64,000 nucleotides of DNA from Eledone cirrhosa (taxonomy: Eukaryota), in contig OZ024742.1 of NCBI GenBank assembly GCA_964016885.1, forward strand, positions 121,768,001 to 121,832,000, written 5' to 3'. Positions 13,522 to 63,962 of the stretch are shown here, piece by piece. Position 1 is the first letter of the stretch; every line of letters starts with the position of its first letter. The translations under genes were made by a program, and so were the position numbers. The notes beneath the pieces were generated by a model. It had not been told where the DNA came from. It searched no databases and saw only the letters and a program-made list of their open reading frames with translations.

Positions 13522-15940
13522 TCAGAGGTATCCACAGTAAGTTGTGGGGTCTATTTTGCATGAAGAACTCGATGTAATCCATATGTTGAAAATGTTGTAG
13601 GTTAAGATAAATCTCAGAAAACAATAAAACATTAAAAGGAAAACAGAGTCATGATATAAGTTAAAACAATGAAATAAAAAATCAAGTACGATCGTTTCTA
13701 GATGATGATAATACATTGTAGCTATACTCCGTTATTGATCTATGTAAGGTTAGTTACAAAATATCAGATAAAGAGAATATTTACTTACATGCATATCACC
13801 AGCTGTTTTCAAAAGCAATAATAATTTTATTCAATAATAATTTTATTCAATAATAATTTTATTCAGAATTAGTAGTATGTATCATGTCCTTATTTGGAGG
13901 TAGTTGAAGAACTAACGAATCAAATTGTTTTTTTCATATGTGTTAAGATGAAAACTAATACACTTTAGTTGAGGTCATGACCCTTTGAAAGGAATGGTTG
14001 AATGGTGTTAATAGTAGAATTGGCATAAACATCTATTAGGAGGAAAGGGATTGTCAAACTGATAGTTGAATGTATCTGATATAGTGAAGTTAAAAAGAAT
14101 GTCAAAATAAATGGCGATTAGTGTTGTATTGAGTTTTTAGGTGAATGTAAATTAAGGTTATGGCTAGGAAAGATAGTATATTAAAAGATGAAAATTATAA
14201 TAAGATAATGAAATACAGTAATGCGATAATATACAACTTAACCAACACAATATAGAACGGTGTGGTAAATTGCACAGCATATGATACGCTCTAAAATACT
14301 ATCAATTATGTTTATGCATAAATAATCAAACTCAGATAAATACATGCTGGCATAGTTAAAACAAATAAATTTCATAGATTACAAAGTGCATATATCCACA
14401 CTATATATATAGAGAGGTACAGTTATATTGATATCCAACAAAAAATATACATACGCACAAATAGATGCAAACCTAAATACACATTTACACATATGCACAT
14501 AATCATATACACACATATCCATACATATCTATATCCACACATACACTCCTATACCCACATATATACATATATACATATACACAGATATACATACACACAT
14601 ATATATATACATATATATATATATATATATATACATATACATATATATATATATATATATATATATACACACACACATATATATATGTGTGTATGTACAC
14701 TCCTCATACATGTACACACACTCATATATAAACACTCATACACCTATACTCACATATACACACACACAAACACACATATATATACATACATACACACACA
14801 CACATACATATACATATATACACATACATAAATATATATATATATATATATATATATATATATATATATATATATATATATATACACACACATAAATATA
14901 TTTCCATATCATACATAGATATATATTTACTCATGGAATTACGGGTGGTTGTGTACCTTGTTGCCTTTAGTCATTAACGCATAAACCTAAGGAAGCTAAA
15001 ACATTAAAAGGTAAAAAAGTAAGCATGAATGCATATAATTAGGGGAAAGAGGTACTAATAAATGTTACTCTATATAGAATTATAGTGAGTTGCTATTTAG
15101 AATATTTAATTAGGTTTATAGTATTTAATTAGGTTTATAGTATTTAAATGTTCTTCGTATACGCTGATTACAAACTATGATCAGTTCCTGCCTTTTATTT
15201 AATAAATCGTCCTTAGATTTAGTAATTTCCAAGATCTCCCCTGAACATAATCTGCATTCCCTCCTGTTCCCAAGATATGGAGTTCTTTGTAGAATGGTGT
15301 TCTACGGTAACTTTAAATCTATTTTTTTCTTTTTATAATTATTTACCGCTTCAGCTAAAGATGTGGTGTTAGCTAGTTTGATACGACTAGAGTGTGCGTA
15401 AAATCTTTTCTTAAATGTGTTTGATGTAGGTCCTATATATGTTTTGTTGGAGTCTGTAGTAGACACAGTGCATTTATATATTACATTATTAATCAAACAG
15501 TTGCCATTTAAGGGGCAAATGCTTCTATTTCTGCAATTACAGCCATACGTAAGATGGTTGTTATCTCATTAACCCTTGAGCTATTCCTATTGTAATTAAT
15601 GATAGCAGGAGAATGAAGGTTGCTTTGTGGGTGGTTTGGTGCTAGGGTTGTATTGTGATTTTGTGTTCTGTTGTTTTTGTGTTGGTGATTTGGGTGGTTG
15701 TGTTTTCTAGGTTGAAGGATTGCATTATTTGCCTTTTTAAAAGGTGCAGTCCTATTTAAATTATGTTGCAGTGGTGTAGTCATATTATTTTAAAGTTTAT
15801 AAATGTTGTAGTTGCTTATTTTTTTACAGAGATCAATAACGGAGTATAGCTATAATGTATTATCATCATCTAGAAACGATCGTAAAGCAGTGAAGTATAT
15901 CTCTAATGACTTAATTTTTTATTTCATTGTTTTAACTTAT
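13522..15940 (-). mobile_element. Truncated Penelope-like element with GIY-YIG remnant and inverted terminal repeat
   Basis: Minus strand CNCRNRSICPLNGNCLINNVIYKCTV..KTYIG..FKKRF (~15300-15545); 13654-13745 inverted at 15825-15940; arms carry HHR half GAAAC-GATC-GTA. Confidence 0.85.
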
Positions 15941-16120
15941 ATATATATATATATATATATATATATATATAATAATAATAATAATAATATTATTTATAGT
16001 TATATATACACTATATAAAACTATAAACAGGAAAAGGACATTAATTCATTACTATCTTATTACCAGTAAGAAAAATAGCTCAATATAAATACATCGGATG
16101 TTTTACAGAGCAGGAATATA

Positions 16121-62790: not shown

Positions 62791-63029
62791 AATTAAATAA
62801 ATAAATAAATAAATAAATAAATGCCATTGTTAAATAATAAATAAATCAACTAATACCTTAACACTTCACACAAAGTAAAACATTTCGTTTTAATCATTTT
62901 CTAACCCAGAAAAAAGAGAGAGAGAAACACAAAAGGAAAAACAAATATTTTTCTTCCTCATAATCGTCTCTTTCTCCCTGTTTTCATATGTATATATATA
63001 TATCATTTGATAATGCATATAAATGCAAT

Positions 63030-63962
63030 ACTGATAAGAAAAAATCAAAATTTATTCAGTTCGATAAGAAAAAATCAAAATTTAAGAAAAAATCAAAATT
63101 TATTCAGTTCGATATTGATGAATATTATTCCTCAATTTCACCTGATACTCTACAGGAAGCTCTTTCGTTCGCTAAGGCTAATTCCGACCTTACGGATGCT
63201 GAAATTAATATTATTATGGAAGCGAGGAAAACTATTGTTAAATTTGATGATAGCTACTGGGTTCGCAAAGATAGACCTCCTAATTTTGATATTACTATGG
63301 GTTCCAATGATTCGGCGGAAGTAACTGATCTTGTGGGAATTTATATCAACCACAGACTACAAGGAAAATTCAAGGATCTCCACGGTGGAATCTACCGTGA
63401 GGATGCGCTCCTATTAGTTAAGCATATGAATAACCAGAATTTAGAAAGGATGCGTAAAAATATCAGAAAGCTTTTTAAGGAACTAATATTAAATATTACA
63501 TTTGAATATAACCTCAAAGAGGTTAATTTCCTTGATGTTACTTTGAATCTCAATACAGAAACGATTAAACCGTTCCATAAACTAAATGAGAACCTTAAAT
63601 ATGTAAATACGAGTTCTAACCATCTACCCTCTATAATTAAATCCATCCCTAGAAATATTTCCCTTAGAATCTCCCGCCTGTCGTCCAACCAGCAAACCTT
63701 CAAAGAACATGCCGAATATTATGATGATGCACTTAGGACGGCTGGACGCCTAGATAATATAGAGTATATAGTCGACGATCACCAAAACACACAAAATAAA
63801 TCTCATAGAGGTAGAAATAGCATAGAATCAGCACCATACATACACTACCGCAATAGACACACTAATAGTCGCATACCACCAAACAGAAGGCGATGTAAAG
63901 AGTATATATGGTACATCAGCTATAACATCACAAAACAACAAACAACATCTCGTCCTACCTAA
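63030..63962 (+). pseudogene. Penelope-like reverse transcriptase fragment
   Basis: FIQFDIDEYYSSI, FDITMGSNDSAEVTDLVG, GGIYREDAL (catalytic YRDD altered), VNFLDVTLNL, SNHLPSIIKSIP; 5' truncated with short duplications; element probably continues beyond the window. Confidence 0.9.

Follow-up and report, generated by a model that had tools for sequence, protein, structure and literature searches.

Do the many hammerhead ribozymes in a 64,000-nucleotide (nt) stretch of Eledone cirrhosa DNA belong to one kind of mobile element inserted by one route, and is the palindrome in their stem III a code by which each family recognises itself? The stretch, here called the window, comprises positions 121,768,001 to 121,832,000 of contig OZ024742.1 (assembly GCA_964016885.1), and all positions below are counted from its first letter. 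We consider it highly probable that these are type I hammerheads borne by the terminal repeats both of Penelope-like elements (PLEs) of the Hydra and Neptune types and of non-coding derivatives, that all were likely inserted into (TA)n by PLE reverse transcriptase (RT)-endonuclease proteins, and that cleavage would, as predicted, take place in dimers.

Hammerheads, their carriers and their insertion sites

The descriptor for type I hammerheads comprised CUGANGA, a domain II of 9-140 nt whose base had to be paired and whose folding energy was taken into account, GAA, H17, a stem III of 2-10 nt in which a palindrome was not demanded, and a stem I of at least 4 bp. It matched 13 sites in the window, compared with a mean of 0.07 and a maximum of 1 in 30 dinucleotide block shuffles, and found 92 C3-G8 motifs in a genome sample of 139 stretches of 10 kb (1.39 Mb, at round coordinates on contigs C1-C15), three shuffles of which gave 0, 0 and 3. 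The excess over shuffled DNA anticipated in a preliminary description of the window is thus present at both scales, and 12 of the 13 hammerheads listed there as intact in core pass the descriptor. The sample density of 66 motifs/Mb extrapolates to ~200,000 motifs over the 3.0-Gb genome (from contigs C1-C15), of which the window is typical in hammerhead content; for the axolotl, with a far larger genome, 126,247 motifs are given (PMC7229834). CUGANGA, GAA, A15.1-U16.1, H17 and joined stems I-III are present throughout the descriptor matches of window and sample, which are predicted to be dimer-cleaving hammerheads. The window DNA also contains many microsatellites and long interspersed nuclear element fragments, and an Rfam search of it gave no hammerhead among the matches listed (150 of 192), just microsatellite-driven microRNA matches. 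A descriptor for U3-A8 cores that needed a stem I of at least 5 bp was insensitive in the sample (2 matches versus 1-6 in shuffles); the U3-A8 family was located by sequence pattern instead.

The carriers of the motifs can be recognised from open reading frames (ORFs). At sampled locus L167 an ORF of 630 amino acids encoding RT and endonuclease, with a CxCx5C linker and without CCHH, lies between giant-domain hammerheads, and by eye it agrees with the supplementary Hydra alignment published by Craig et al. Also judged by eye, this ORF and the window fragments have the C-terminal GIY-YIG, CxCX5C linker, lack of CCHH, and near-terminal CxxC and CxH of Hydra-type elements; the ORFs recovered begin downstream of where the DKT motif and the N-terminal RWK would lie. 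Four window ORFs (15128-15565, 17516-18778, 55939-56586 and 62964-63959) align with the L167 ORF, which also matches 25 of the 139 sampled stretches, while a Pfam search left the Hydra-type ORFs undetected. In each of five families (AGAACT, ATATATAT, ACCTCTGGT, ACGATCGT and ATGCGCAT, named by stem III) at least one copy is preceded, 0.7-1.5 kb upstream and in the same orientation, by a Hydra-type endonuclease, and some of these pairings could be chance nesting. A second PLE type (DKG, CX4CxxC, CCHH) bears U3-A8/ACCGGT motifs and has the features of the Neptune/Nematis type, namely DKG, a C-terminal GIY-YIG, a CX2-5CxxC linker and CCHH. The 466-bp unit of an array in the window and the family of the hammerhead at 23617 are non-coding, dispersed and often tandem, each unit having an intact type I hammerhead as in non-LTR retrozymes; their hammerhead design agrees with published Hydra motifs, and no cognate ORF-bearing copy was found among 20 loci. 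The carriers are thus likely, to judge by these motifs, to be Hydra-type and Neptune-type PLEs, foldbacks consisting of the PLE pseudo-long terminal repeat (pLTR) only, and non-coding retrozyme arrays. That the motifs are PLE pLTR hammerheads, as had been proposed, is supported by the RT and endonuclease ORFs upstream of several families.

The insertion sites were equally informative. A (TA)6 tract was present within 300 nt downstream of 71 of the 88 scorable sample motifs (55/72 with one row per locus and family) and within 300 nt upstream of 36/88, against 21% of random points, so that the predicted enrichment of (TA)n at junctions is real and polar. Every family has two 3' ends. At head-to-head loci one end is longer than the other by a family-constant tail in 26 of 36 non-array loci, a count that leaves out six loci without a measurable end and five array loci and that includes some loci chosen as inverted pairs. 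The tail is ~135 nt in 14/18 giant-family loci and, in other families, 91-98 nt in 4/5, 90 in 2/3, 60 in 2/4, 33-47 in 3/3 and 85 in 1/3; the same asymmetry was found in 5/5 loci of the C13 family described below. The one-sided tail of the array in the window is the PLE tail, and tails on retrozyme arrays were not found in the literature searched.

It could be argued that the foldbacks and their association with (TA)n are an assembly artefact or chance in a TA-rich genome, given that TA tracts are as common at random points as noted above and that perfect palindromes can be chimeric. We find this scarcely credible, since the (TA)n bias is polar and end positions are fixed per family. Furthermore, contigs from the public runs X1 and X3, which derive from a single sample that may be the assembly's own, repeat the ends of the family at 30114-30463 beside TA, and they contain many different joints of this ATGCGCAT family, 13 of 15 lying at 30287-30291 among the matches listed (15 of 106). 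Runs X4 and X5 gave no coverage of 30032-30720. In this family 5' ends fall preferentially at 30288/30289, ~69 nt ahead of the core, which suggests that the pLTR transcript is short or that there is a strong stop.

In the reading that we prefer, a PLE protein would nick a TA tract and reverse transcription would start at one of two internal RNA sites, from which the two 3' ends of each family would follow. Second priming on the other strand would produce an inverted, 5'-truncated copy, RNA of the pLTR only would give rise to foldbacks, and multimeric or circular non-coding RNA would give rise to arrays. The two ribozymes of a foldback sit on opposite strands, and foldbacks are likely dead ends. 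The earlier suggestion of a single (TA)n-preferring pathway holds in that autonomous elements, foldbacks and arrays share their insertion geometry, but at least two endonuclease types take part; since Hydra-type and Neptune-type PLEs have different endonucleases, there would be one mechanism but not one enzyme.

Three further observations concern the ends. The tails of several Hydra-type families have a GAGTGCT-like motif (30085-30095, 56740-56750 and 61205-61218 in the window; loci L073, L106 and L119), a candidate protein-binding or initiation signal. Different families abut end to end in TA tracts (L027:1487-1800; L245; window 33176-33582). At L027 a giant-domain pLTR passes into an array retrozyme with no intervening TA, a fusion for which a template jump is possible.

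Giant domain II, core variants and the stem III palindrome

Domain II is long in many of the sampled motifs, exceeding 26 nt in 56/92 and reaching at least 48 nt in 24/92 and at least 90 nt in 7/92. The pattern CTGAWGA-N(90-120)-GAAACGATCGTH has 12,299 exact matches in the genome, against 9 for the reversed-pattern control, and the domain II rods of this giant family measure about 95-116 nt. With 60-89-nt spacers the same core pattern gave 17,968 matches (control 969), and with 30-59-nt spacers 121,375 (control 9,265), the latter being an upper bound because 11 of 100 matches listed were a repeat that lacks helix II. The insert adopts a rod-like fold, with z values of -2.4 in the window copy, -7.9 and -2.6 in relatives and -4.9 in a second 95-nt family. 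In three subfamilies the helix II arms pair with their own partners at 0.97, 0.89 and 1.0 and with swapped arms at 0.39-0.84, the pairs being counted from the core outward because a MAFFT alignment misaligned the arms; these compensatory counts come from few events in related sequences that are not independent. In subfamily c two stem I pairs are altered on both sides and the core has changed from C3-G8 to U3-A8, a core found in 975 copies with N7 varying. The invariance of ACGATCGT in the giant family is not evidence, since it was built into the search pattern; nine distinct homologs found without ACGATCGT in the query all read ACGATCGT. The changes on either side of the ~100-nt insert are those that a catalytic fold would need, and it is likely that the giant family would still cut.

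The opposing view is that these hammerheads, chiefly the giant-domain and C13 forms, are inactive pLTR relics and that the rod serves another purpose, for instance binding the PLE protein. It draws on a family in which the invariant position 13 is C (window copy at 13307), which has been amplified to 10,627 exact copies (control 0). This family departs from the invariant A13 and is hence classed as hammerhead-like only, and it has near-intact ORFs at loci L264-L281, where RT and endonuclease with DKG, CX4CxxC and CCHH lie between the hammerhead-like motifs. The wider U3-A8/ACCGGT pattern has 32,483 genome matches versus 243 for the reversed control. Either the core tolerates the fixed C13, or this family proves that cleavage can be dispensed with; a fixed-C13 hammerhead family was not found in the literature searched, outside which Lunse 2017, Arkhipova 2017 and some supplements may describe C13 variants. 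The relic view can also point to eight of nine Xenopus retrozyme dimers reported as failing to cleave, and to insertion that proceeds in vitro without cleavage (PMC11167929). However, the swap from C3-G8 to U3-A8 with a free N7, together with paired stem I changes across a 107-nt insert, points to selection on the catalytic fold, and we regard the relic view as unlikely, though it deserves to be kept in mind.

Two other features of the long-domain families were observed. In several (29170, 30358, 43092, 54760 and 61379) helix II begins with ~3 pairs followed by a C-C or C-U mismatch, and this mismatch at the base, before the long extension, may substitute for loop 2. The 3' untranslated region (UTR) of the giant family, ~3.5 kb long, is full of CA/TA-like repeats (L166, L167 and L171; window 14449-14926, perhaps 24042-25521), by which the family may spread microsatellite-like DNA.

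For stem III, the preliminary description held that it is almost always a palindrome. This is true of the window; in the sample a perfect palindrome was found in only 43 of 92 motifs, rising to 56 with G-U pairs and to 78 when a mismatched centre was permitted. The centre is non-palindromic (AGAACT/AGGACT) in a short family that ranks among the commonest (L051, L052, L085 and L111). In cofolding, the double hammerhead makes both stem III and stem I intermolecular, and the cofolded motifs at 29170, 23648 and 30358 form it at 3.7-12.1 kcal/mol below two monomers. The palindrome would thereby allow two copies to build one continuous stem III, which would be a folding requirement.

It had been proposed further that the family-specific palindrome is a selected self-recognition code that stops pairing with the ribozymes of other families. 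The palindromes of related families (ATATATAT, ATGATCAT and ATGCGCAT) do differ by double changes, and the ATATATAT and ATGCGCAT families have a common stem I with different stems III, by which the claim that stems are unrelated between families is also overstated. Stem III pairs with a mean duplex energy of -6.3 kcal/mol in self and -1.2 kcal/mol in foreign combinations, and palindromes have been argued in silico to act as a self/non-self device in other RNAs (PMC13079385). For the comparison 23 families were used, four doubtful singletons having been dropped, two clusters merged and one split. Fully compatible pairs among the 8-nt families numbered 5/78, an excess over the 1.2 expected from a uniform null (P=0.01) and no deficit relative to the 4.5 of a position-frequency null (P=0.72). 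A fully compatible foreign partner exists for 8 of the 23 families, and 7 of the 23 representatives are not fully self-compatible. Palindromes recur across families: ACAATTGT is found in four domain II types (62, 65, 75-78 and 82-83 nt) and six published Hydra families have ACTTTAAGT in common. Among 253 family pairs, nine match in stem III, five in stem I and one in both, as divergence alone predicts, so that stem I discriminates as well as stem III, and part of the palindrome variety appears to resemble CpG decay. A selected code is therefore very improbable. The families are mostly orthogonal because stems I and III have both diverged, and family specificity would come from the two stems jointly, with no selection for a code.

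Several points weigh against the reading of PLE-inserted, dimer-cleaving hammerheads. For the two retrozyme families no homologous autonomous element was found, and a Hydra-type endonuclease lies within one of 20 of their loci. The Hydra-type and Neptune-type clade labels rest on motifs and not on a tree, and giant subfamilies b and c on five and three distinct sequences. Internal TA runs of the ACTAGT unit inflate the (TA)n distance score, no empty insertion sites were seen, and part of the TA tract may be post-insertion growth. The predicted minimum-energy fold of the motif at 34799 is an alternative intermolecular helix II and not a clean double hammerhead, and cleavage was unnecessary for insertion in the one PLE tested in vitro (PMC11167929). 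A bolder proposal is that this is a genome with some 200,000 or more hammerheads mostly beyond the published minimal descriptor, in which Hydra-type PLEs have active split-core ribozymes whose rod of up to 116 nt docks or times the PLE protein, and in which, as the tails would indicate, PLE proteins of this kind also insert the non-coding retrozymes; we put it forward tentatively, its chances being somewhat below even.

The present families bear on the role of the hammerhead in PLEs and on the enzyme that mobilises animal retrozymes. Many of them were amplified recently and can control for one another, since domain II may be short or giant, the core C3-G8 or U3-A8, position 13 may be C, and some family pairs have only stem I or only stem III in common; both of these questions and the heterodimer question thereby become directly testable. 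These results also suggest that censuses limited to a short helix II likely undercount hammerheads in such genomes, and that PLEs reported without hammerheads or with half cores merit re-inspection allowing a long domain II.

Elements of the window

The retrozymes are represented by a non-coding array of the 466-bp unit at 33583-36945, which is inverted head to head at 34344-34346, has (TA)n on either side and a ~59-nt tail at the left end only, and contains six full hammerheads with stem III ACTAGT (-33920, +34799, +35265, +35737, +36203 and +36669, all passing the descriptor) plus a half at the inversion. A single diverged unit of the array retrozyme (~75% identical) with a short inverted piece lies at 25540-26162 (+) and contains the ACTAGT hammerhead 25798-25828 (+), which passes. 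The hammerhead at 23617-23648 (-; ATGCAT), also passing, lies in a small foldback of a non-coding repeat family (23495-23766, -) with (TA)n at both ends and the tail at the right end.

The giant-domain hammerhead of subfamily a at 29051-29170 (-) has an intact core with halves 101 nt apart, a rod-like domain II, a 9-bp stem I, ACGATCGT and (TA)n 63 nt downstream, and passes the descriptor. That of subfamily c at 13687-13812 (-) has a U3-A8 core, a 107-nt domain II and ACGATCGT, the 3' strand of stem I being damaged in this copy. It falls within a 5'-truncated Hydra-type PLE (13522-15942, -) with (TA)n at both ends, endonuclease fragments (15128-15565), a microsatellite-like 3' UTR, a 3' pLTR and an inverted half copy (15824-15942); a half site of the ACGATCGT family at 15873 is new. 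A 5'-truncated copy of subfamily b (33403-33523) occupies 33202-33523 (-) between two (TA)n tracts.

Both hammerheads with ATGCGCAT and a 36-nt domain II, 30165-30219 (-) and 30358-30412 (+), pass the descriptor and form a pLTR-only foldback (30031-30463) with its centre at 30288/30289 and with (TA)n at distances of 134 and 43 nt from its ends. The ATATATAT hammerheads 54716-54760 (-), which passes, and 56619-56663 (+) lie in a truncated Hydra-type PLE (54661-56809, -) with endonuclease at 55939-56586 and with (TA)n at distances of 56 and 146 nt from its ends. The intact-core hammerhead at 61330-61379 (-; 31-nt domain II) reads ATGTTCAT where relatives read ATGATCAT; it fails the helix II filter of the descriptor through a weak helix II base and has no (TA)5 nearby.

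Of the 11 sites described as decayed hammerheads, nine are backed by homologs (13300, 13690, 16160, 19070, 33398, 43020, 43594, 56611 and 62750), and three of these are core variants at the level of the family: 13300 (U3-A8 and C13), 13690 (U3-A8) and 43594 (C4). The site at 22590 is unsupported, as it belongs to another repeat whose homologs lack both core halves, and 56925-56934 (-) is a degenerate ACCGGT-type 3' half alone (GAA-ACCGGT-A). Homologs overturned the dismissal of 13300 and 62750 as non-hammerheads and ruled out 16160/19070 as members of the giant family. The latter are decayed hammerheads with stem III ACGATTGT at 16164-16202 (-) and 19160-19198 (+), the second of which had been placed at 19070; they lie in a Hydra-type PLE (16017-19246, -) with inverted repeats 16116-16369/18993-19246, the ORF 17516-18778 and a ~95-nt tail at the left end. 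The decayed hammerhead 43044-43092 (-) has G12 changed, a 30-nt domain II and ATATATAT, its stem I being unlike that of the 54760 family, and a foldback at 43483-43805 (-) carries the C4-variant hammerhead 43597-43625 with stem III AATT and a 42-nt tail at the right end.

The U3-A8 group includes the hammerhead-like motif at 13307-13336 (+), with C13 (GCA for GAA), a 13-nt domain II and ACCGGT, in the pLTR of a Neptune-type PLE family, and the 3' end of a Neptune-type PLE at 61743-62781 (+), with a frameshifted GIY-YIG endonuclease (CX4CxxC, CCHH) and a U3-A8/ACCGGT hammerhead with A14 changed at 62751-62781 (+). Three members were absent from the preliminary description: a ~200-bp foldback at 28697-28893 (-) with a hammerhead at 28820-28849 whose stem III is mutated from ACCGGT, an ACCGGT hammerhead at 44568-44597 (+) with (TA)n 41 nt downstream, and a degenerate U3-A8/ACCGGT-type site at 12339. 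The RT fragment of a Hydra-type PLE at 62964-63959 (+) is 48.5% identical to the L167 ORF.

A further descriptor match at 9418-9468 (-; AATGCATT) had no homolog in the fetched loci and is due to chance or very old. The window also holds three broken non-LTR retrotransposons (2019-4450, -; 4574-7843, +; 58003-59523, +), of which one has RT followed by a cysteine-rich C-terminal region and the other two have AP endonuclease and/or RT. A dispersed repeat of ~190 bp resembling a short interspersed nuclear element occurs at 1099-1274, 22367-22507, 26878-27267, 41647-41806, 42422-42581, 43239-43439 and 47378-47527, once as a tandem dimer. At 49112-52044 split direct repeats (49112-49417/51739-52044 and 49852-50108/51483-51739) flank a 1.4-kb interior.

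Comparison with known systems

Hammerheads of metazoan PLEs with a palindromic helix III have reportedly been treated by Lunse et al. in 2017. The metazoan PLE hammerheads of Cervera and De la Pena (2014, PMC4209133) are, like those here, of type I with a palindromic stem III and a U3-A8 variant, and they include opposite-strand pairs 100-700 bp apart; dimer cleavage has been proposed for them (PMC4209133; review PMC6765202). Their descriptor has a domain II of ~26 nt and a stem III of 4 nt (PMC4209133), and one of our 92 sampled motifs falls within both limits, although these authors and Craig et al. applied other, relaxed descriptors too. The closest elements are the Hydra-clade PLEs of Craig et al. 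(2021, PMC8557442), an octopus family included, which have the C-terminal GIY-YIG, the CxCX5C linker without CCHH, (TA)n insertion, inverted 5'-truncated copies and a one-ended tail, and in whose hammerheads a mismatch, U-U or similar, closes stem II and stem III is nearly palindromic. The Hydra motifs tabulated there have a loop 2 of at most 10 nt, whereas domain II here is 13-116 nt; ACGATCGT is absent from the part of their supplement searched, and the giant family adds the long 3' UTR.

Animal non-LTR retrozymes (Cervera and De la Pena 2020, PMC7229834; Li et al. 2026, 10.64898/2026.07.22.740005) consist, as here, of tandem units that are non-coding, measure a few hundred bp and each contain one type I hammerhead, and have been proposed to be non-autonomous PLE derivatives. 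In the text consulted, the published case is built on co-occurrence and pLTR homology, to which the present arrays add head-to-head inversion, (TA)n ends and the one-sided tail. Poseidon PAc, of a different clade, also uses an AT-rich target in vitro, and two internal sites at which reverse transcription starts explain its tail (Frangieh et al. 2024, PMC11167929); that tail is 30-40 bp, compared with about 33-140 nt here depending on the family.

Type I PLE hammerheads with a domain II of 50-116 nt were not found in the literature searched, outside which Lunse 2017, Arkhipova 2017 and some supplements may describe long-helix-II variants; the 'long helix II' of PMC13725137 is 6-8 bp. The nearest parallel is the discontinuous hammerhead of Clec2 (review PMC6155905), whose core halves are likewise parted by a long insert. 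It is of type III with a 150-1500-nt insert in helix I and is found at few host loci, in contrast to the giant family, which is of type I with its insert in helix II, mobile and present in >12,000 copies. Palindromic stem III, dimer cleavage, U3-A8, opposite-strand pairs and the PLE origin of animal retrozymes have thus already been published, as have, for Hydra elements, insertion into (TA)n, inverted copies and tails. This is largely known biology, to which the window and its genome add a high-copy structural variant with a giant domain II and a useful junction signature.

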